The notes: generated by a model not told the origin, from the sequence alone. DNA of 64,000 nucleotides from an uncultured Thermoplasmatales archaeon (GCA_964414415.1 CAYPWJ010000005.1:11772-75771); one strand, 5' to 3'. Shown: positions 45,065 to 62,203, counted from the stretch's first letter. Numbers and translations: made by a program.

Positions 45065-46483
45065 TCACGGGTACCTCAGGTATTTGATGATGCTTCCCTG
45101 CCACTGCATGACCTTGCCGGGGTTCATGATGTTCTTCGGGTCGACCGCCTGCTTGATGTCGCGCATGAGCTGCAGCGTATCCCGGCGCTCCAGCTGCATC
45201 CAGGGCGCCTTGGAGATGCCGATGCCATGCTCGCCGCTGACGGTCCCCTGAAGCTCCAGGACAGCGCGATAGATGGCGTCGACCGCTGCCTCGGCGCGGT
45301 CCCAGCTGCCCTCCTCCAGAGGATTGATGAGCACCTTTGTATGGAGGTTGCCGTCGCCCGCGTGGCCATAGGTGCCGACCAGGATGTCGTGCTCGTCGGC
45401 GATCTCCTGGAATCGACGAATGGCGATGGGGATGCGGGAGATGGGGACTGACATGTCGTCGGCCAGCGAGACGGAGACGGAGTCCTCGCCGTAGCGCGAC
45501 AGCGATGGCAGCACGCTCTTGCGACCCTGCCACAGCGACGCCATCTCGTCTTCCTTGTGAGTGAAGTCGACCGTGGTGGCACCGCTCCCCCGGCAGATGT
45601 CCGCGACGGCTTCGATGTCCTCCTTGATGACCGCCTCGTCGCCGTCGACCTCGGCCAGGATGATAGCCTCGCACTCGGGCAGCCCGACACCGGTGGACTG
45701 GTTGACCGCCCGGATGCATACCTCGTCCATGATCTCCAGGCCGGAGGGCTGCAACCCGGATGCGACGACGTTTGAGATGCCCTGCCCGGCCTGCTCGAGG
45801 TCGTCGAACGAGGCGATGGCGATCGCCCGGCTCTTTGGCAGCGGCAACAACCGCAGCGTTACCTTGGTGATGACGCCGAGGGTGCCCTCGCTGCCGACCA
45901 TCAGCCGTGAGAGCTGGTAGCCAGACGAGTTCTTGATGGTCCGGGTGCCCATGTGCGCGACGGAGCCATCAGGCAGGACGACCTCGAGGCCGAGGACGTA
46001 GTCACGGGTGGCGCCGTACTTGATGGCGCGCATCCCGGAGGCGTTGCAGGCCACCATGCCGCCGATGGTGCAGACGTCGCTGCTGCCGGGCGACGGCGGG
46101 AAAAAGAAGTTCTCTGGTGCCAGCTGCTCGTTGAGCTTCGCGTATATCACGCCCGGCTCGACGACGCAGTAGAGGTCGTCGACGTTGACCTCGAGCACCC
46201 GGTCCATCGCTGACATGTCAAGCACGATGCCACCCTGTATCGGCACAGCCTGGCCTGACAGCGCGGTGCCCGACCCGCGGGCCACCACCGGCACCTCGTG
46301 CTCGTGGGCGACGGTGACGATGTCGCTCACCTGATCGGTGCTGCGGGGCTGCACGACGACGTCGGGCGTCCGATGATGGATGGAGGCATCGAATCCATAT
46401 GCATAGAGACCAGCCAGCGAGGTGATGAGCCGACCGTCGCCGACGACCTCCCGGAGCTCTTCCATGACCTGACTCGAAAGCAT
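45065..46483 (-). CDS. FAD-linked oxidase (GlcD/D-lactate dehydrogenase family)
   Basis: FAD-binding PCMH domain (VVARGSGTALSGQAVP), then EHGIG and the C-terminal FAD-oxidase_C region. It pairs with the Fe-S subunit 5 nt downstream. Confidence 0.9.
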   Translation of the reverse strand: MLSSQVMEELREVVGDGRLITSLAGLYAYGFDASIHHRTPDVVVQPRSTDQVSDIVTVAHEHEVPVVARGSGTALSGQAVPIQGGIVLDMSAMDRVLEVNVDDLYCVVEPGVIYAKLNEQLAPENFFFPPSPGSSDVCTIGGMVACNASGMRAIKYGATRDYVLGLEVVLPDGSVAHMGTRTIKNSSGYQLSRLMVGSEGTLGVITKVTLRLLPLPKSRAIAIASFDDLEQAGQGISNVVASGLQPSGLEIMDEVCIRAVNQSTGVGLPECEAIILAEVDGDEAVIKEDIEAVADICRGSGATTVDFTHKEDEMASLWQGRKSVLPSLSRYGEDSVSVSLADDMSVPISRIPIAIRRFQEIADEHDILVGTYGHAGDGNLHTKVLINPLEEGSWDRAEAAVDAIYRAVLELQGTVSGEHGIGISKAPWMQLERRDTLQLMRDIKQAVDPKNIMNPGKVMQWQGSIIKYLRYP

Positions 46484-46506
46484 GGATGGATAATATACAG
46501 GATATT

Positions 46507-47745
46507 TTAAGCGTTGCCGTCAACAGCTTGGTTCTGTCCTAAAAATTCTTGCAATCTATCTCTATTTGCCTCAGGAAATTTATCTTTATATAGCACTAAT
46601 ACTCGGTCTATTTGTGTAGCTTGGCCCTTTTTTTCATCTCCCCATATCCGACTGACTTTGTTTTCGGTGGGAAGTTTATCTTCAATGATTGAAGCAAGTT
46701 TAAACTGCGTGTGAGGAGCTACCTCTTCCCAGAGCACGTTTGCCAATTTTGTGTGTCTCTCTTCGTTTCTTTTTCCTATGTCACCGACAACGATTGCGGC
46801 CACGCCGTTATCTGCTAGCACCGACTCTATACTATGAAGGAATGTTAAGAAAAATTCGCCATAATTCCGACGGGAATATGCGTCGCTCAAACATTGGTCA
46901 ACTTTTTTTGGGTCAATATCAAGTAGCCATAGTCGAATCCAATTGTATTTCCCATATTTTATAATATTTATATAGGGAGGGGAACAAACCACCAATTTAA
47001 CGCTGTTTTTTTCAAAATATTGGTTTTGAATTGAGGGTAAATCTCTAACATCTGCCAGATATGCTTTTCCTCGATTTGCAGGCAAATCATCCTCATATAG
47101 CCTATCAAGTTTATGTCTCAAGTTGTCGAAGGCATCTAAAGGTAATTTTTTCAAATTTTTTTCTTTGATATAGTTTCTTACATAGTTGGGAGACATGCTA
47201 AAGGTGTTCGGCATACTTATGCTGAGATAACTAGAGGTGTTACCGGATTTGTGATGCTGACCGTGTAAAATTCCTGCTAAGCAAGCTAATAAGAATCTGT
47301 CAATATCATCATTTTTATCAAGATTGTTTTTCAGATATACTATCTGTTCCAAGGTGGATTCATGAAAAAGCATCGATATATCATCGGGAACACTGCGAAT
47401 GTTATCTCCCCCAAAGTTGGTAGATAGCTCTAATATTCTATCTAATGCCTCATCTTTAGTGGGGGGTTTGAGTTTAGCTTCTGTTATGAGATGCGCTAGA
47501 GGATTCAAGTCTACACCTACTCCAACTCTACCTTCAAGACATGCTTGCAAAGGGGTAGTACCACTCCCACAAAACGGGTCAAGCACAACATCTCCTTCGT
47601 CGCTAAATAATTGAATAAAGTAATGTGGAATCCTTGGAGGAAAACTTGCCATATAAGAGCACATAGAATGAAATGAGTGCCCCCATCTTTTCCGAAGTAA
47701 TCGCCAACGATTCTCATCCCACTTTGTTTTCGCCATTATATTCAC
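46507..47745 (-). CDS. DNA N6-adenine/N4-cytosine methyltransferase (N6_N4_Mtase-type motifs)
   Basis: AdoMet motif I block SFHSMCSYMASFPPRIPHYFIQLFSDEGDVVLDPFCGSGTT near the N-terminus and catalytic motif IV VVCSPPYIN about 190 aa later. Confidence 0.85.
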   Translation of the reverse strand: MNIMAKTKWDENRWRLLRKRWGHSFHSMCSYMASFPPRIPHYFIQLFSDEGDVVLDPFCGSGTTPLQACLEGRVGVGVDLNPLAHLITEAKLKPPTKDEALDRILELSTNFGGDNIRSVPDDISMLFHESTLEQIVYLKNNLDKNDDIDRFLLACLAGILHGQHHKSGNTSSYLSISMPNTFSMSPNYVRNYIKEKNLKKLPLDAFDNLRHKLDRLYEDDLPANRGKAYLADVRDLPSIQNQYFEKNSVKLVVCSPPYINIIKYGKYNWIRLWLLDIDPKKVDQCLSDAYSRRNYGEFFLTFLHSIESVLADNGVAAIVVGDIGKRNEERHTKLANVLWEEVAPHTQFKLASIIEDKLPTENKVSRIWGDEKKGQATQIDRVLVLYKDKFPEANRDRLQEFLGQNQAVDGNA

Positions 47746-50012
47746 AGATTCATGGACTCGGTGAGTCTCTCAATGGATATAAGAGAATGTATAATAGTTC
47801 TTGCGGCTCTTTGTAACTCTGACTCAAATACTTCCTCTGGTATGTCGGGGATGCCATCGGCCTCCATTTCCGGTAATTCTTCTTTTCGATAGAAGTGTTG
47901 TAACCACGCACAAAAAGCTACGTACACCGTATAGTTATCTTTGAACCGGTTTATCCATTTCTCAGAATAGCGTGATTTCTCCAGTTGCTCTTTAAAGTAA
48001 TGAAATTCCATAGAAACCAATATGTCTATTGAATCAGCCTCCTCTTTTACCTCTGCAACATTATTCTCGTCCCAACCTAACCTTTCCCACGCCGGCGTTT
48101 GTTTTGATACTCGTCTTATATTTGGAAGCGAGATTTTTCTTTTTGTCCCTTCTCCATAATCAGCTGTGGGTGGCTCTTTTACAATCCCTTTCCGTTCTTC
48201 TTTAAGTGGACTCTGATTTGGCCGGGTTAACACTGCTGTTATTGATACTTCCTCCCCTATTTCAGCTTCGTCAGATGTTTCTAAAAAGCAGCGAAGTCTT
48301 CCTCCATCAAAATAGGAATGTCCCCTAACATTTATGTGGTCTTCGGGCTCTATTAGCAACAATATTTTATTTTGTCGACTCAAATAACCATCTTCTGCAT
48401 CGCTCTCTATCTTCAATTGGGAAGAACGGCCTTTCACCAGAGGGATTGGATCTTGCTTATTTGCGATTTTTATGTAGGTGGGGATTTCCCGGGTCTCAAG
48501 AGGCTCTGGCGGGGTATAGCTTCCTCTCTTAGACGTTCCTGTCTGTGTTTTATCCCCAGAGGATGTGCCGCCTACAGTCTCGGTTTCCCCTCTAACGTAG
48601 TCAATTAATTTTCCTAATTCCTCTTTCAATTTTTGCGTTTCTTCTTCACTTGTCTCTGATAAAATCTCTTGGTGTCTTTGTTTCTCTAATGCCCTCAGAT
48701 CATCATCATTTCTTAAAGCGGTGCGGATAGCTTCCTCCATTTGATCACGGACCATACCTTTATTGAGCCTCTCACGTGTGGAACTAAATAATTCTCTCTT
48801 ACCTTTTGCAGTAAGAGTGTCACAACTTACCTCTACAATGAGATATTTTGATAAGTAGGGTAACTGTAATTTATTTCTGATAAAAGAGCGGGAAAGATAA
48901 CCATGGGTTTGCCCGTAATGAGTGAAGTAAATAGGGTGTCGTTTATCAACATAAGCCTCAACAGGATAGGACTTATCGGGATCATGCCTCAGTACCCAAT
49001 AACGGACTATCACTTTGCCATATTTTCCCGTAGGTCTTAAATTTACCTCACAGACGTCACTTTTTTCTATCAAATCACGTGGATCACTCTGCAGACGGGT
49101 ATAATTCCCAGCAATTGTCCTAGACTTAGTTTTCTTCCTATTATCCGTTACATAGACAGGCAGCACCGGATCAAATAAGGAACTTTGAATGAGCCACCAC
49201 AAACTGCCAGTAGGTGCTGTCAGAGTTGCTGAATATTTTGGAAGCTCAAAATCAATATGTTTGATGTAAGTGCCTTCAAAATTATTACCTAAACCCAACT
49301 CTGTTGGCGGAATTGTTAATACTTCATTTTCATCTGTTACAAGATACTCGTAAGTACCATTTTTGTATTTTTCTGGATCTCGTTCTCCATAACGGACGAT
49401 CGTCATACCTACCACATCTTCTGCGTCCTCCCCTAGTAAGTCGGGTGGACGGCGGGAAATAATAATTGTATATTTACTATATCTGAAAGTTGTCTGTCCT
49501 CCCTGGCCATAAGCTCCTGCTAGATATAGCTTAGTTAATTTATTACTCTCGTTTAGGCTTAAAAGAGTATTAGGAAAATCAAGCGGATGTTGCCCGACGC
49601 CTTTATCCCGAATTACCAGGGTAGGAGTTCTCCTTTTTGACCCTTTATACATTTGTATTTGGATATTATTTTTCGCCAATTTCCGTCTCTCTGTAGAGGT
49701 AAGAGTATCCAAATGCCCGGTTTTTACTCCAAACCATTCTTCTACCGCTTCCCTTGGATTATCCGGGTAGTTATCCATCTCCGGATTTTCAAGGGCAGCT
49801 CTTTCTAATATTGCATCAATGGCATTAGTGAGTCTCTCAATAAAGCCCTCCCCAGGATCTGCACCCATATTTATAACGCCAACATTGTTTTCTTTATCGC
49901 CCACCGGCCGCCATTGTAAGTTATATTTATCCTCTACTTTATTAATAAAACCCTCCATTTCGGTAGCTTCATTGATATTCAATAGTTCTTCCATCTCGCT
50001 TTCTGTAAACAT
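47742..50012 (-). CDS. large GHKL (Bergerat-fold) ATPase protein, prokaryotic MORC/paraMORC-like; C-terminal about 500 aa unassigned
   Basis: N-terminal N box GFIERLTNAIDAILERA (ExxxNxxDA), G1 box VIRDKGVGQ (DxGxG) and G2 box GAYGQGGQTTF (GxxGxG). The 4-nt overlap with the MTase suggests translational coupling. Same AT-rich codon usage. Confidence 0.7.
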   Translation of the reverse strand: MFTESEMEELLNINEATEMEGFINKVEDKYNLQWRPVGDKENNVGVINMGADPGEGFIERLTNAIDAILERAALENPEMDNYPDNPREAVEEWFGVKTGHLDTLTSTERRKLAKNNIQIQMYKGSKRRTPTLVIRDKGVGQHPLDFPNTLLSLNESNKLTKLYLAGAYGQGGQTTFRYSKYTIIISRRPPDLLGEDAEDVVGMTIVRYGERDPEKYKNGTYEYLVTDENEVLTIPPTELGLGNNFEGTYIKHIDFELPKYSATLTAPTGSLWWLIQSSLFDPVLPVYVTDNRKKTKSRTIAGNYTRLQSDPRDLIEKSDVCEVNLRPTGKYGKVIVRYWVLRHDPDKSYPVEAYVDKRHPIYFTHYGQTHGYLSRSFIRNKLQLPYLSKYLIVEVSCDTLTAKGKRELFSSTRERLNKGMVRDQMEEAIRTALRNDDDLRALEKQRHQEILSETSEEETQKLKEELGKLIDYVRGETETVGGTSSGDKTQTGTSKRGSYTPPEPLETREIPTYIKIANKQDPIPLVKGRSSQLKIESDAEDGYLSRQNKILLLIEPEDHINVRGHSYFDGGRLRCFLETSDEAEIGEEVSITAVLTRPNQSPLKEERKGIVKEPPTADYGEGTKRKISLPNIRRVSKQTPAWERLGWDENNVAEVKEEADSIDILVSMEFHYFKEQLEKSRYSEKWINRFKDNYTVYVAFCAWLQHFYRKEELPEMEADGIPDIPEEVFESELQRAARTIIHSLISIERLTESMNL

Positions 50013-50107
50013 TTGAACGACTAATGGAAAAAGCCATTAAAATAATTACGTTTTTTATACTGATAAAAAGTAACCAAAAGCATTTAACAAACAGGGTATT
50101 TCAGCCT

Positions 50108-51649
50108 ATGCACTGGGCAGACGTCGCGGCACGGGAGCTCATGGAGCGCGGTGACAGCCACGTCCTCGCCACGGCGATCACGCCATCCGGCCCCATCCAC
50201 GTGGGCAACATGCGCGAGGTGCTGACAACCGACGCCGTCCATCGGGCCGTCGCCAGCCACGGCGGCGAGTCGGAGCTCATCTACATCGGCGACACCTACG
50301 ACCCGCTGCGCAAGGTCTACCCGTTTCTGCCCGACAGCTACGAGCAATACGTCGGCCAGCCGCTCTCCGAGATACCATGCCCCTGCGGCAGCCACGACAG
50401 CTACGCCCATCATTTCCTGACGCCGTTCCTCTCGTCGCTCGAGGAACTCGGGATAACGCCGACGGTGCATCTCGCCCACGAGCTCTACCGGGAGGGTGAA
50501 TACAACGAGGCGATCCACGTCGCGCTCGACCACGCCGACGGCATCCGCCACACGCTTAACAGCATCGCCAGCCGGGATCTGCCGGAGGGATGGATGCCAT
50601 TCACGGTGCGATGCCCCCACTGCGGCCGGCTCGCCGGCGACGTCACCTCATACGACTGGCCCTCCATCTCGTATCACTGCAGCGATTGCAACGAAGACGG
50701 CGAGGTCAACGCCGAGGACGGCGGCGTCGGCAAGCTCCCCTGGCGCGTCGACTGGCCGGCCCGCTGGCAGATGTTCGACGTATCGTTTGAGGCATTCGGC
50801 AAGGATCATGCTGCAGCCGGCGGCTCGTGGGACACCGGTCAGGCCATCGTCCGCAACGTCTACGGGCGTGAGCCGCCGATGCCGATGGTCTACGAGTTCA
50901 TCCACCTCAAGGGACAGGGCGCGATGCATGGCTCGACCGGTACGGCCATCGCGGCGGCGGACATGCTCAGGATGACGCCGCCCGAGGTGCTCCGCTTCCT
51001 GCTCATGAAAAGCGAGCCGTCGCGGCACATCGAGTTCGACGCGGGCTTCGGCCTGCTCGACCTCGTCGACGAATACGACCGCTATGAGCGCGCATACTAC
51101 GGTGAGGAAGACGTGGGCCTCAAGGAAGACAAACGGATCTACGAGCTGTCGCAGCCCTCCGGGACGACGCCGACCAAGATGCCGGCACAGGTGCCCTACC
51201 GGCACCTGGTCACCGTGGCGCAGGTCGCCGATGGCTTCGACGACATGCTGGCCATCCTCCGGCGCAACGAAGAAATCAACGAGCTGTCAAGCGACGGCAG
51301 GCGCCGGCTCCGGGACCGCTGGGAAAAAGTCCGCTACTGGCTTGAGCATTTCGCTCCCGAGGCGGTCCAGTTCGAGGTGCAGGACAATCTGCCTGACGTC
51401 GACCTGAGCAGCGAGCAGCGGCGTTTCCTGGCGACCCTCCACCATGAGATGCAGGAACTGCCGTGGGAGGCGGAGGCTATCCACCAGGCCATCTACGACG
51501 CCGCCGAGCAGCACGACCTGTCCGCCGGCGCGGCCTTCAAAGCGCTCTACCGCATACTGCTCGGCCAGAAAAAAGGCCCGCGCGCCGGCTACTTCATCCA
51601 TTCACTGGGACGCGAGTTCATGTTGCAGCGGCTCGCAGAGGCGACCTGA
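50108..51649 (+). CDS. lysS: class I lysyl-tRNA synthetase (archaeal type)
   Basis: HIGN-type motif ITPSGPIHVGNMREV and a Zn-binding Cys cluster (CPHCG...CSDC). The internal Met at 50108 was chosen; the upstream codons lie in an AT-rich leader. Confidence 0.9.
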   Translation: MHWADVAARELMERGDSHVLATAITPSGPIHVGNMREVLTTDAVHRAVASHGGESELIYIGDTYDPLRKVYPFLPDSYEQYVGQPLSEIPCPCGSHDSYAHHFLTPFLSSLEELGITPTVHLAHELYREGEYNEAIHVALDHADGIRHTLNSIASRDLPEGWMPFTVRCPHCGRLAGDVTSYDWPSISYHCSDCNEDGEVNAEDGGVGKLPWRVDWPARWQMFDVSFEAFGKDHAAAGGSWDTGQAIVRNVYGREPPMPMVYEFIHLKGQGAMHGSTGTAIAAADMLRMTPPEVLRFLLMKSEPSRHIEFDAGFGLLDLVDEYDRYERAYYGEEDVGLKEDKRIYELSQPSGTTPTKMPAQVPYRHLVTVAQVADGFDDMLAILRRNEEINELSSDGRRRLRDRWEKVRYWLEHFAPEAVQFEVQDNLPDVDLSSEQRRFLATLHHEMQELPWEAEAIHQAIYDAAEQHDLSAGAAFKALYRILLGQKKGPRAGYFIHSLGREFMLQRLAEAT

Positions 51650-53746: not shown

Positions 53747-53861
53747 GCACGTCTCCGGCGGATAATAAATGCACGTATAAACCATATAAAAATAATCCGA
53801 ATATTTATAAACAAGTATTACATTCATTATATGAACGCTCACAAAATGGGAGGTGCAAAAT

Positions 53862-56210
53862 ATGATAAAAATTGCAGCATCCTGCATGGCCGCCGTTCTG
53901 CTCCTGTCCCTCTGCGCAGCTCCGAGCACCATACAGGGCGATGATTCATCCGGCATTCATGGCGGCAGATACGATAGAGTCCAGGTTGCAGACAGCGGCG
54001 ACGGCGACACACTCTACGTCGGCGGCTCCGGAACCGGCAACTACACCACGATACAGGCGGCGGTAACAGCCGCAAAAGACGGAGACACCGTCTTTGTCTA
54101 CGATGACTCATCTCCATATTATGAGAACGTGGTGGTGCAGAAATCCATCCAGCTGGAAGGAGAAAACAGGCATTCCACCGTCGTAATCGGGGTACTAAAT
54201 ACGCCGACGATTGTAATCGCTGCTGACGATGTCATCCTGTGCAGGGTTACTGTCCACCACACGCAGCGAAGTCCATTTCGAAGCGAAAGCGACGGCGTGT
54301 CCATTCGAGGTGCCAACGTAACCATCCAGAATAACTACATCTCTGAAAACTGGAACCACGGCATATCAGTCAGAGGTGCCTCCAGCGTCCGCATCGTGGA
54401 CAACGAAATCAACCGCAACATATGGGTCAACATCTACATGGCTGATGCAACGGATGCCATCATTGCAAACAACACCATCGTCCGAGCCAAGCTGAACGTG
54501 CTGCTTCGCGGCGCTTCACACAATACCATCAGCTCCAACGTCATCGGCCACTCCAACGGCCTCCACATGGATGGTGCATCAAGCCATAACAGCATCGTCG
54601 CCAACACCTTCGAAAACTGCGGAGACAGCATCACGATGCGCGACGGCTGCAGCGACAACCGCATATCAGACAACCGCATCACCGAGAGCTCCAGGATCGG
54701 AGTTATAATCCACGAGGGATGCCTCCGCAACACCGCGAGGAACAACACGTTCACGAGGACGACCATAGGGATAGAATGCCGTTCGCCGAGCACGATAGAA
54801 AAAAATACATTTACCCGGAGCGGCATACGCATTTTTTCGAAAGGCAACAGAGTGGAAGGCAACACCGCCAACGGCAAACCGATTATCTATCTGGAAAACC
54901 GTTCACACGTCGCGGTGAATGAATCTCCCGGACAAGTCATCCTCATATGCTGCGACAACGTCACTATCGACAACCATACGATAGCGAACACGAGCGTGGG
55001 CGTACAACTCTGGCATTCCCGCTACTGCAGCATTGCAAACACCACGTGTACCGGAAACACCGTCGGCATCCACATCGGTTCATCCAGCCACATCCATGTC
55101 GCTGACAATGTCCTCCAAGACAACGAAAACGCTCTGCATATACAGGGGACACAGAACACCGTAGCCCATAACCAGCTTCTATCAAACATGGACGGCATCT
55201 GGCTTGGCTACAGCAGCAACAACAGCATCCAAGACAACCATGTAGCCAACACCCGATACACCGGCATCGACCTCTACGATTCATCCGAAAACAGGATAGA
55301 AAACAACACTCTGATCGATGGGTTCTACGGCATCCACGTGAGGTATTCCTCAAACAATCGTTTCCTCTATAACGTGTTCAAAAGCAATAGCGAAGGTATA
55401 TCGCTCGACAGTGGCACCAGCAACGTTATCGTACATAACGCTCTCTACGATGACGGGCTGCGCGTCCGTCAGGTGGCATCGCTCCGCTCTAACGTCATCA
55501 GAAACAATACCGTGAACGACAAACCGCTTGTCTTGTGGGAGGAAAAAACAGATGAAATCCTGCCTGACGTGGGTCAGGCCATCCTCGTCGGGTGCAGCAA
55601 CGTCACCCTCCGCAACCAGACTATATCAGACACGACAACCGCCGTAACGCTCTGGAATTGCACTAATTGCAGGATTTCTAGCTGCGACATATATGCCAAC
55701 AGCGACGCTGGGATAGAACTACACACATCATCCTGCAACGTCATCCACGACAACCAGCTCCACTCCAACCGATACGGCATCAGACTCTACGACTCCTCCT
55801 CAAACGATATTTCGGGGAACACCCTGTTAGCCGGAGGGTTGCTTATCTCTCGGTCAGACGAAAACCTTGTTAGCGGCAACCGTTTCTCTGCAAACGAGAG
55901 AGCTGTATCTATCGATGCTTCGTCCGGCAACCGCCTCAAAGACAACATCTTCTCCGAGAACAACAACGCAATGGTGGTAGCCCAGAGCAACGGCAACCAT
56001 ATCCATCGCAACGACTTCATAGATAACGAGAACGACGTCATCCTCTACTCATTCCACAACCTCTGGACGAGAAACTACTGGGATACCTGGCACATGGCAG
56101 CCCCGAAGCCGATACTCGGGCATCTCGGGCAGGGAATCCTGACAAACCTCCCGTGGCTAAACGTCGACTGGTGCCCACGGCTTATGCCGCAGGAGGCCGA
56201 CACCGGATGA
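53862..56210 (+). CDS. secreted right-handed parallel beta-helix repeat protein (NosD/PbH1-like)
   Basis: Signal peptide MIKIAASCMAAVLLLSLCAAPS. Many about 22-aa beta-helix coils with N-x-I/V-x-x-N patterns (e.g. IQNNYISENWNHGISVRGAS). C-terminal NYWDTWHMAAPKPILGH...NVDWCPRLMP motif. Confidence 0.75.
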   Translation: MIKIAASCMAAVLLLSLCAAPSTIQGDDSSGIHGGRYDRVQVADSGDGDTLYVGGSGTGNYTTIQAAVTAAKDGDTVFVYDDSSPYYENVVVQKSIQLEGENRHSTVVIGVLNTPTIVIAADDVILCRVTVHHTQRSPFRSESDGVSIRGANVTIQNNYISENWNHGISVRGASSVRIVDNEINRNIWVNIYMADATDAIIANNTIVRAKLNVLLRGASHNTISSNVIGHSNGLHMDGASSHNSIVANTFENCGDSITMRDGCSDNRISDNRITESSRIGVIIHEGCLRNTARNNTFTRTTIGIECRSPSTIEKNTFTRSGIRIFSKGNRVEGNTANGKPIIYLENRSHVAVNESPGQVILICCDNVTIDNHTIANTSVGVQLWHSRYCSIANTTCTGNTVGIHIGSSSHIHVADNVLQDNENALHIQGTQNTVAHNQLLSNMDGIWLGYSSNNSIQDNHVANTRYTGIDLYDSSENRIENNTLIDGFYGIHVRYSSNNRFLYNVFKSNSEGISLDSGTSNVIVHNALYDDGLRVRQVASLRSNVIRNNTVNDKPLVLWEEKTDEILPDVGQAILVGCSNVTLRNQTISDTTTAVTLWNCTNCRISSCDIYANSDAGIELHTSSCNVIHDNQLHSNRYGIRLYDSSSNDISGNTLLAGGLLISRSDENLVSGNRFSANERAVSIDASSGNRLKDNIFSENNNAMVVAQSNGNHIHRNDFIDNENDVILYSFHNLWTRNYWDTWHMAAPKPILGHLGQGILTNLPWLNVDWCPRLMPQEADTG

Positions 56211-62129: not shown

Positions 62130-62202
62130 GGGCCCGTAGGGTAGTTTGGCATCCTTCTACCATGGGGCGGTAGTAACTCGAGTTCAAATCTCGACGGGCC
62201 CA
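62130..62202 (+). tRNA. tRNA-Pro(GGG): tRNA-Pro (anticodon GGG), CCA not encoded
   Basis: Hand-folded cloverleaf. Acceptor stem GGGCCCG/CGGGCCC, D-stem GGGT/ATCC with a 9-nt D-loop, anticodon stem CTACC/GGTAG with loop A-T-GGG-G-C, 4-nt variable loop, T-stem TCGAG/CTCGA with T-loop TTCAAAT, discriminator A. Confidence 0.85.
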
Positions 62203-62203
62203 C

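Follow-up and report, generated by a model that had tools for sequence, protein, structure and literature searches.

The question raised by this locus is what an abruptly AT-rich pair of genes, encoding a DNA methyltransferase (MTase) and a 756-aa GHKL ATPase, is doing between a glcD-like gene and lysS in the window (the whole 64-kb stretch of DNA that was analyzed). The answer we favor, with a probability of about 0.6, is that the region is a self-contained, horizontally acquired two-gene module of the restriction-modification (R-M) type with a putative role in defense.

The foreign nature of the region was deduced from its composition and from the corresponding sites in relatives. A GC scan recorded a drop from 0.64 to 0.66 down to 0.36 to 0.43 over positions ~46500 to 50000, the lowest-GC part of the window, and the GC content at third codon positions (GC3) was 0.34 for the MTase gene and 0.35 for the ATPase gene compared to 0.79 to 0.89 for the neighboring genes and 0.86 for lysS. 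The AT-rich island with A/T-ending codons described in the initial annotation was thus borne out (40% GC), as was its suggested horizontal acquisition. In the two closest relatives found, the metagenome loci L088 and L153 (glcD-like protein, 87 to 88% identity; lysyl-tRNA synthetase [LysRS], 79% identity), the start codons of the glcD-like gene and lysS lie 72 nt apart at a GC content of ~0.65 and the island is absent, which is the synteny that had been anticipated for an acquired island and the opposite of a lineage-wide gene pair with native codons. The insert is placed precisely between the divergent native genes (Table 1), and the empty-site comparison defines the mobile unit as exactly two genes, MTase and ATPase. 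The stop codon and last three codons of the MTase gene were found by junction comparison to be host flank sequence. The insert holds no third gene; neither direct or inverted terminal repeats at the island ends nor flanking repeats were found, and neither an integrase nor a nearby tRNA was found for the island. Scans of the island for bacterial sigma-70 promoters and terminators gave no enrichment, and an Rfam search of the window gave no match. A TATA-like element, read directly from the DNA, lies within the insert and may serve as the promoter of the cassette. The host is probably an archaeon, as judged from its gene content (class I LysRS, pyruvoyl arginine decarboxylase, HMG-CoA reductase, and Lhr).

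The island could in principle be nonfunctional in this genome at present, either silent or decaying as a passenger, given that its codon usage is far from that of the host, its promoter is only a candidate, and the MTase C terminus has been rebuilt from the flank. This is considered very improbable, as both ORFs are intact and retain all invariant family residues, and no difference in the island (100% identity) is seen among four independent assemblies, one of which has 8 SNPs in the glcD gene next to it. Two entries, L086 and L087, were at first suspected to represent another genome carrying the same island between other flanking sequences, but both proved to be the same locus, and the 359-aa MTase of L086 reflects a gene-caller difference rather than a mutation.

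Table 1. Positions of the insert, its two genes and their motifs and domains, and the native flanking genes
Feature	Position	Strand	Remarks
glcD-like FAD-linked oxidase gene, native flank	45065..46483	-	PF01565, PF02913; start 23 nt from MTase stop
Foreign insert	46519..50071	.	3,553 bp, GC 0.399; junctions set against empty sites in L088 and L153
DNA MTase gene	46507..47745	-	412 aa from GTG; 409 aa from ATG at 47736
MTase motif IV, SPPY, residues 255-258	46972-46983	-	From sequence
MTase motif I, DPFCGSGTT, residues 56-64	47554-47580	-	From sequence
756-aa paraMORC-like GHKL-S5 ATPase gene	47742..50012	-	Upstream member of the gene pair
ATPase C-terminal small alpha/beta unit plus long helical hairpin, residues ~630-756	47745..48125	-	No nuclease signature
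Ig-like beta-sandwich domain, residues ~505-615	48168..48500	-	Semi-conserved ESDAxD patch (E536, D538, D541)
Three-helix linker (420-475), then disordered low-complexity tether (476-498)	48519..48755	-	Secondary structure; tether pLDDT <50
S5-fold transducer domain, residues ~270-420	48753..49205	-	Invariant R292, W339, R413
GQTH loop in S5 domain	48897-48917	-	Invariant G367-Q368
GHKL (Bergerat) ATP-binding domain, residues ~1-250	49263..50012	-	Conserved motifs in 49 homologues
ATPase motif IV, G247-T248	49257-49277	-	
ATPase motif III, G166xxGxGG in GAYGQGGQ, residues 166-173	49494-49517	-	
ATPase motif II, D136xGxG in IRDKGVGQ, residues 134-141	49590-49613	-	
ATPase motif I, E59..N63..D66 in ERLTNAIDA, residues 59-67	49812-49838	-	
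TATA-like A/T-rich element	50051..50059	-	Inside insert, ~40-47 nt 5' of ATPase ATG; direct reading
Class I lysyl-tRNA synthetase gene (lysS), native flank	50108..51649	+	PF01921; divergent from island

The MTase matches PF01555 (7.2e-19) and, over its full length, the PADLOC model MTase_II (PDLC03325; 6e-37). With DPFCGSGTT and SPPY it has both of the catalytic motifs, I and IV, looked for in the MTase of a type II R-M system, and its initial assignment to the N6/N4 type was upheld. Motif IV has the SPP(Y/F) form of N4-cytosine MTases and not (D/N)PP(Y/F); SPPY was present in all 38 MTase orthologues checked, and SPPF was present in 16 of the 17 partner MTases of the upstream type (see below). 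The relatives in the PDB were M.PvuII and other N4-cytosine MTases, and one UniRef name was cytosine-N4-specific. On the basis of the motif and these relatives, the island MTase is probably N4-cytosine specific. Close homologues belong to a DISARM-like locus and, in Bacilli, adjoin a DUF87 ATPase gene. The 4-nt overlap (GTGA) reported between the two island genes is conditional on the GTG start, since the ATG chosen by public gene callers leaves a 5-nt gap. The translational coupling that it implies is nevertheless credible because ATGA/GTGA overlaps or gaps of 0 to 3 nt are the rule between the paired genes in homologous loci.

The 756-aa protein gave no match in Pfam, NCBIfam, PADLOC, PHROGs, or the PDB (phmmer and profile searches), and its fold was identified by structure prediction only. 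The predicted structure has the Bergerat alpha/beta sandwich followed directly by an S5 transducer domain with a phosphate-sensing residue, which places it in the GHKL+S5 class, and its best structural match was MORC3, in agreement with the MORC-like GHKL fold first proposed. The three Bergerat boxes noted at that time (RLTNAIDA, RDKGVG, and GAYGQGGQ) are all present; motifs I to IV are intact and a lysine precedes motif III, as in GHKL ATPases generally. Among 49 homologues, E59, N63, D66, D136, G138, G140, K158, G166, G169, G171, G172, and G247 were invariant and T248 was kept in 97%. The low pLDDT at residues ~150 to 170 is consistent with a mobile ATP lid. Conservation across the family extends over the C-terminal 330 residues, and the C-terminal fragment matched only Ig-like folds. 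The only conserved polar residues of the C-terminal unit are W642, W647, N670, E732, R735, and T739, and this unit is presumed to have a role in dimerization or target reading. In a subfamily of ~830 to 920 aa, the full family profile matched only to about residue 622, plus a second, shorter stretch, which suggests that the C-terminal module has been replaced. Structure, conservation, and analysis of the C-terminal fragment revealed neither a nuclease fold nor a conserved set of catalytic residues at any position of the protein, and profile and structure searches did not provide the recognizable nuclease that marks the partner in a type II R-M system.

Three placements of the ATPase were considered. 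A housekeeping GHKL enzyme (MutL, topoisomerase VI-B, or HtpG), named in the initial annotation as the identity that would overturn its proposal, was rejected on the basis that no curated model in NCBIfam or Pfam was matched, that the gene lies in a foreign insert, and that the family is patchy and MTase-linked. MORC sensu stricto was not supported by either of its marks. The MORC signature GhXhhpXXRhl of the S5 domain was matched by none of 79 ATPase family members, while in the positive control it was at the expected position in 12 of 14 neighboring HATPase_c_3 proteins and elsewhere in one more; the G367-to-R375 spacing is kept in the ATPase family but the hydrophobic positions of the signature are not. 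The anticipated Pfam match to HATPase_c_3 (PF13589) did not materialize at an E value of ≤1 for the 756-aa protein, and the homologues P0372 (24.8 bits) and P0284 (20.5 bits) both fell short of the 25-bit cutoff. An hhalign comparison of the family to bacterial MORCs aligned the right motifs at a nonsignificant E value of 0.16. Because the MORC signature is absent, "paraMORC-like" is more accurate than "MORC." Of the paraMORC groups, paraMORC3/Shedu type I-D was rejected, as no DUF4263 PD-(D/E)xK match was obtained (Pfam; the C-terminal fragment being Ig-like only). The family is probably the paraMORC1 of Iyer et al. (2008), whose descriptive features are found in both the 756-aa protein and its family (PMC2292703).

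The family comprises 1,062 representatives at an E value of ≤1e-30 (clusters at 50% identity), distributed patchily over more than 15 bacterial phyla and three archaeal lineages. It is nearly absent from viruses, and a phage origin was rejected on the same counts (0 matches in INPHARED and 1 in IMG/VR). The linkage to MTases is tight, since one adjoins the ATPase in ~60 of 75 informative loci, and the partners belong to at least three, probably four, types that are unrelated to one another. In ~39 loci the island-type MTase is immediately downstream of the ATPase, usually with an ATGA/GTGA overlap, and in ~18 loci a different, beta-class PF01555 MTase is present, usually immediately upstream, with an apparent in-frame fusion at a single locus (L033). 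Other loci have an N6/N4 MTase of a further kind, a C5 MTase (PF00145; 1e-51), or a protein with a weak D12-class match (PF02086, under the Pfam cutoff) and EPFAGS/DPPY motifs. Interchangeable MTases around one conserved partner are the pattern expected of a restriction component. The genomic context is of the defense type: genes for a HindIII R-M system, for a PLD nuclease and YhcG, and for transposases lie near family members, and distant plasmid homologues adjoin PAPS-reductase, DUF262, and SIR2 genes. In fourteen loci, 13 of them in Bacteroidota genomes (including Leeuwenhoekiella blandensis MED217, locus L028) and the other on a metagenome contig (L002), the ATPase is followed by the MTase, a 265-aa protein, and, last, a bona fide MORC gene. 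In these loci, the co-occurrence of MORC and methylase without a helicase, one of the features described for paraMORC1 (PMC2292703), was observed; the island has only the ATPase and the MTase.

The same distribution bears on two alternatives. A MutL-like ATPase paired with a cytosine MTase might serve in methylation-linked repair or maintenance, handling damage or mismatches at methylated sites in the manner of Vsr with Dcm. This is quite unlikely, as the insert carries no MutS, Vsr, glycosylase, or nuclease partner, and the family shows the patchy distribution and mobility of R-M systems rather than vertical inheritance, adjoins other defense genes, and also pairs, on the weak evidence of the D12-class match, with an adenine-type MTase. 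Alternatively, the ATPase might be a latent toxin against the cell's own DNA or proteins that is checked by ongoing methylation and freed upon cassette loss or MTase inhibition, phage protection being a by-product of cell death. Type II R-M systems can cause post-segregational killing, and such addiction or abortive infection would suit a minimal selfish unit with tightly coupled genes of which the ATPase is translated first. Nothing in these data, however, distinguishes addiction from ordinary restriction, and strong dependence on the MTase is opposed by ~10 family members with sufficient flank that have no MTase within 5 kb (e.g., several Vulcanimicrobiota loci) and by L011, in which an insertion interrupts the MTase but the ATPase ORF remains intact. 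Addiction is regarded as improbable. These loci also count against the R-M interpretation, a broken MTase with an intact ATPase being awkward for a lethal restriction enzyme, with the qualification that L011 is from a MAG.

Under the R-M interpretation, the MTase (probably N4-cytosine specific) would mark host DNA as self, and the ATPase, as the putative effector, would target DNA without the methyl mark of its partner. By analogy to MutL, MORC, and topoisomerase B subunits, the ATPase is probably a dimer in which ATP binding shuts the N-terminal gate, thereby clamping or looping the DNA. It may then cut at an unrecognized active site or block the replication and expression of that DNA. The lack of a nuclease fold and of a third gene in the insert argues against an R-M system, as does the result of the PADLOC-DB v2 search, where the ATPase matched 0 families at an E value of ≤1; the latter agrees with the initial view that the pair corresponds to no named two-gene anti-phage system.

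Two forms of the R-M interpretation differ in the fate of the foreign DNA. The ATPase itself might cleave unmethylated DNA in cis, as opposed to acting without a nuclease or recruiting one from the host, with the semi-conserved acidic patch E536/D538/D541 or the conserved D398/R413/D436 cluster as candidate sites. The sequences of restriction nucleases are known to diverge widely, the two genes suffice by themselves as a mobile element, acidic and basic residues are conserved outside the ATPase motifs, and nucleases are fused in other GHKL lineages (the MutL C-terminal domain, VcSduA, and, according to PMC2292703, paraMORC3). Cleavage in cis is regarded as a tentative possibility. The second form, that the module restricts foreign DNA without cutting and uses cytosine N4-methylation as the self mark, appears rather doubtful. 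Here, the dimer would read unmethylated sites via its Ig-like and helical C-terminal module, and ATP-driven closure of the N-terminal gate would entrap the invading DNA and compact or roadblock it. If true, the module would be a prokaryotic forerunner of eukaryotic MORC-mediated silencing.

The importance of the family is that it is found in many bacterial phyla and in archaea and yet escapes detection by Pfam, NCBIfam, PADLOC, and PHROGs; a profile built from the family alignment would let defense-system annotators detect a module that is currently missed. Its minimal unit pairs a single MTase with a single ATPase, lacks a helicase and any detectable nuclease, and offers a simple handle on how a GHKL clamp tells marked from unmarked DNA and what follows. 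Should the ATPase prove to cut DNA, it would define a new class of ATP-dependent restriction enzymes; should it not, the module would exclude DNA without a nuclease, by a mechanism linked in direct evolutionary descent to gene silencing in eukaryotes.

Compared to eukaryotic MORC3, MORC2, and SMCHD1, the window protein is similar in sequence at the motif level only; it lacks the CW, chromo, and hinge domains, and its Ig-like/helical C terminus is unrelated. In BREX, an MTase marks self and an ATPase is present with no evident nuclease, which provides a precedent for restriction without cleavage. The island, however, has no PglZ, BrxC, BrxL, or other BREX proteins, consists of two genes rather than six or more, and has an ATPase from a different superfamily. 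The statement in the initial annotation that essentially no prokaryotic MORC or paraMORC has been characterized is dated, since VcSduA, a Shedu protein of the paraMORC3 type in which a GHKL ATPase at the N terminus is combined with a clamp-like middle domain, is a validated anti-phage protein (PMC12137116). VcSduA is a single gene with a C-terminal DUF4263 PD-(D/E)xK nuclease and no MTase (PMC12137116), whereas the window protein is coupled to an MTase and has no such nuclease match. A MutL-like GHKL protein is also found in the validated defense system mzaABCDE (Gao et al. 2020, as cited in PMC9523054), and operons related to it are described in the same source as carrying a cytosine MTase and MORC-family proteins.

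A 2008 prediction (PMC2292703) cast prokaryotic MORC and paraMORC proteins as components of R-M systems and as ancestors of the eukaryotic MORC chromatin silencers. The paraMORC1 operons described there and the present family both have DNA methylases and no helicase, and both are patchy and laterally mobile; L. blandensis, shown in Figure 1 of that paper, is among the 14 loci with a MORC gene. Relative to the paraMORC1/MORC operons presented there, the island is the bare two-gene form, with no MORC, helicase, or nuclease gene. Like the classical type II and III R-M systems, it is a translationally coupled two-gene unit with a PF01555 MTase that is inserted whole, with no integrase, and whose MTase partners are interchangeable across homologues. 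It differs from them in its non-MTase component, a GHKL ATPase, where type II systems have a PD-(D/E)xK, HNH, or PLD nuclease and type III systems an SF2 helicase-nuclease.

The island is a mobile two-gene unit. In 500-nt windows the GC fraction fell from 0.64-0.66 to 0.36-0.43 at about positions 46500-50000 and then recovered, a dip unmatched elsewhere in a scan of the whole 64-kb window. The GC3 values of the island genes were 0.34 and 0.35 versus 0.79-0.89 for the neighbouring genes, and these data confirmed the compositional break reported in the initial annotation. Its placement of the insertion between the glcD-like gene and lysS was supported by a metagenome scan in which the class I lysyl-tRNA synthetase (LysRS) from the flank was the query. 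Two contigs from the nearest relatives that could be obtained (79% identity in LysRS, 87-88% in the glcD-like oxidase) were recovered, and in both the two genes are adjacent, with divergent start codons 72 nt apart, a GC of about 0.65 and no island.

Alignment of the window to this empty site delimited an insert of 3,553 bp with a GC of 0.399. The insert is located between A/T-rich elements that flank each native start codon and remain in place; these were taken to be both native core promoters, preserved by the insertion. The methyltransferase (MTase) ORF extends three codons (Gly-Asn-Ala) into host intergenic sequence and then stops. Since these terminal codons are shared with the empty site, it was deduced that the original 3' end of the gene was replaced at insertion. 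The island ends showed neither terminal repeats nor a target duplication, no integrase was found, and no tRNA lies close by. Four assemblies from one population share this locus, and their islands are 100% identical. In assembly ERR5414701 (L086) of this population, where the island is likewise identical, a stretch of glcD holds eight substitutions, seven of them within 28 nt, which may have arisen by local recombination or as an error at the contig end. The host is probably an archaeon, as its genes include those for class I LysRS, a pyruvoyl-dependent arginine decarboxylase, HMG-CoA reductase and Lhr helicase. A gene for a NosD/beta-helix repeat protein (785 aa; GC about 0.52-0.53 versus 0.62-0.66 around it) forms a second, milder compositional anomaly and may also be foreign.

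Coordinates of the island and of other features discussed, within the window unless a comparison locus (L) is named
Feature	Coordinates	Strand	Remark
Insert	46519-50071		MTase and ATPase genes
ATPase ORF, 756 aa	47742-50012	-	upstream gene of pair
MTase ORF, 412 aa from GTG	46507-47745	-	downstream gene of pair
MTase last three codons and stop	46507-46518		present in empty site
glcD substitutions versus L086	45833-46061
NosD/beta-helix gene	53853-56210	+
tRNA-Pro(GGG)	62130-62203	+	ARAGORN; Rfam at gathering thresholds, zero matches in whole window
MTase-ATPase fusion	L033:6768-10232		Gemmatimonadales MAG
Four-gene operon	L028:7989-13898		Leeuwenhoekiella blandensis MED217
PLD-family protein	L064:9938-10780
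PLD-family protein	L066:9727-10578
~340-aa upstream protein	L015:6991-8004
~340-aa upstream protein	L053:6582-7620
~340-aa upstream protein	L065:2847-3850
~340-aa upstream protein	L071:6983-8005
DISARM-like locus	L165:4051-13257		Thalassobacillus devorans
DUF87 ATPase locus	L163:6001-11505		Bacillus paralicheniformis

The 4-nt overlap initially described for the two genes holds for the GTG start of the MTase, which overlaps the ATPase stop codon as GTGA, but not for the start chosen by public gene callers, an ATG three codons further in that leaves a 5-nt gap. Because orthologous pairs normally overlap as ATGA or GTGA or are separated by 0-3 nt, tight translational coupling was deduced to be a family trait. 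The motifs quoted earlier for both proteins were all found where they had been placed, and the assignment to the N6/N4-type DNA MTases was borne out by matches to Pfam N6_N4_Mtase (7e-19) and, over the full length, to the PADLOC type II MTase model (6e-37). Motif I (DPFCGSGTT, residues 56-64) lies about 190 residues ahead of motif IV (SPPY, residues 255-258), an order that is circularly permuted relative to the nearest solved relatives, the beta-class M.PvuII and M.RsrI. A serine at the first position of motif IV is typical of N4-cytosine enzymes. SPPY was kept in 38 of 38 orthologues examined, and for a 50%-identical homologue one UniRef name reads cytosine-N4-specific; the protein is probably an m4C enzyme, as judged from its sequence. 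The MTase belongs to a far larger family than the ATPase does. Homologues from Bacilli (48-49% identity) adjoin a DrmE_C protein and a large helicase in a DISARM-like locus, or a DUF87 ATPase and a 455-aa protein. From these neighbours the MTase looks like a general-purpose self-marking module, and a single MTase type appears to be employed by several kinds of defence-type system.

The 756-aa protein gave nothing meaningful in Pfam, NCBIfam, PADLOC, PHROGs or the PDB (single sequence and profile). A word-indexed search yielded 421 full-length homologues, none of which has a name or a Pfam domain and the nearest of which is only 40% identical. An exhaustive profile search at E<=0.001 yielded 2,536 cluster representatives, of which 1,062 reached E<=1e-30. 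The family was essentially absent from viral collections. In a 49-member alignment the invariant residues of the ATPase half were E59, R60, T62, N63, D66, D136, G138, G140, K158, G166, G169, G171, G172 and G247, and those of the second half were R292, W339, G367, Q368 and R413; T248 is conserved at 97% in the family alignment. The conserved positions of the ATPase half correspond to Bergerat motifs I-IV. Structural matches were led by the MORC3 ATPase (19.2; 283), SMCHD1 (18.1; 314) and the MutL N-terminal domain (16.6; 272), followed by TRAP1, MORC2, Topo VI-B and ParE. Motifs and fold establish the protein as a predicted GHKL+S5 ATPase whose catalytic motifs are intact and which has a tethered Ig-like and helical module.

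MutL, Topo VI-B and HtpG, the housekeeping GHKL enzymes considered in the initial annotation, were rejected because no curated model matched, the gene is foreign and its distribution is patchy. The description as a MORC-like GHKL ATPase was retained for the GHKL fold and the paraMORC-like character but not for a true MORC. MORC sensu stricto was rejected since the signature GhXhhpXXRhl was matched by 0 of 79 large proteins of the family, the expected match to HATPase_c_3 (PF13589) was not obtained for the window protein (two homologues fell just under the cutoff), and hhalign of the family against bacterial MORCs gave an E of 0.16.

Gene context was compared across 80 genome and 2 metagenome loci. 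An MTase was adjacent in about 60 of the roughly 75 loci with enough flanking sequence, and the linkage of the ATPase to interchangeable MTases is tight and conserved. The window's MTase type lies directly downstream in about 39 loci, and a different beta-class PF01555 MTase (SPPF ... DPFAGSN), mostly immediately upstream, is found in about 18. In L033 the latter is apparently fused in frame with the ATPase (1,154-aa ORF), which could be an assembly artefact as it comes from a single MAG. Other partners were another N6/N4 MTase (L015), a C5 MTase (L065; PF00145, 1e-51) and, on the opposite strand in L036, a weak D12-class match (PF02086, below the Pfam cutoff) with EPFAGS and DPPY motifs read by eye. 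Directly upstream of the ATPase, loci from archaea (Methanoregula, Thaumarchaeota) and actinobacteria encode a conserved ~340-aa protein without a Pfam match, which may be a third component in its subclade. Distant plasmid homologues (22-28% identity) adjoin PAPS-reductase, DUF262 and SIR2 genes. Two of these, both about 27% identical and 805-822 aa long, lie beside PAPS-reductase-family genes, with a 'sensor histidine kinase' on Ensifer adhaerens plasmid pC (L160) and with DUF262 and SIR2 genes on a Hymenobacter plasmid (L161); their context suggests that partnerships of the wider superfamily extend to non-methyl DNA-modification modules.

In 14 loci (13 Bacteroidota genomes and metagenome contig L002) two further genes extend the pair, one for a 265-290-aa protein and one for a HATPase_c_3 protein of 505-520 aa. 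The operon of L. blandensis runs ATPase, MTase, 265-290-aa protein and true MORC; the others are L002, L019, L023, L025, L029, L031, L034, L037, L039, L045, L052, L069 and L077. The HATPase_c_3 neighbour matches PF13589, and in 12 of the 14 loci the MORC signature occurs in it as GFALVQGNRVI where it is expected. The 265-290-aa protein, in which E106 and Q119 are invariant and D89 and E104 are each at least 90% conserved, may be a PD-(D/E)xK-like nuclease. The window carries only the first two genes. A PLD-family protein (PF13091, weak RE_NgoFVII match) follows a shortened ATPase (577-669 aa) in L064 and L066, which hints at a separate nuclease in some variants.

The restriction-modification-like interpretation was supported overall, and we give a defence role a probability of about 0.6. 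The MTase would mark host DNA, and the ATPase, probably acting as a dimer whose N-terminal gate closes on ATP as in MutL, MORC and topoisomerase B subunits, would engage mark-free DNA via its variable C-terminal module and then inactivate it. Inactivation could mean cutting at an unrecognised site, the work of a recruited host nuclease, or entrapment that needs no nuclease. The missing nuclease counts against defence; within that reading, cleavage in cis by the ATPase is a tentative option, and nuclease-free exclusion of foreign DNA a rather unlikely one. Also against defence are the roughly 10 loci with enough flank but no MTase within 5 kb, and L011, where a disrupted MTase lies beside an intact ATPase. 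The alternatives are an accessory to repair, which is improbable, an addiction or abortive-infection toxin, slightly more so, and a silent passenger, the least probable. Defence is the preferred reading.

Literature searches found no experimental work on a two-gene MTase plus GHKL system. ParaMORC3/Shedu, for which VcSduA (PMC12137116) served as the comparator, was rejected because its DUF4263 is absent from the window protein. Prokaryotic MORCs and five 'paraMORC' families were predicted to be restriction-modification components by Iyer, Abhiman and Aravind in 2008 (PMC2292703), and the paraMORC-like protein was probably foreseen there computationally. In that paper paraMORC1 is found in a minority of MORC neighbourhoods with methylases and without a helicase. 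The L028 locus fits this arrangement exactly and its species is in the Figure 1 list (PMC2292703); by published description and gene context the window protein is therefore most likely a paraMORC1. A large ATPase family has been missed by all current annotation resources, and the island offers a clean, tractable entry to the unsolved question of how prokaryotic MORC-type ATPases act on DNA. The module is not categorically new; it is a minimal variant of a predicted restriction-modification component, lacking a helicase and any identifiable nuclease.
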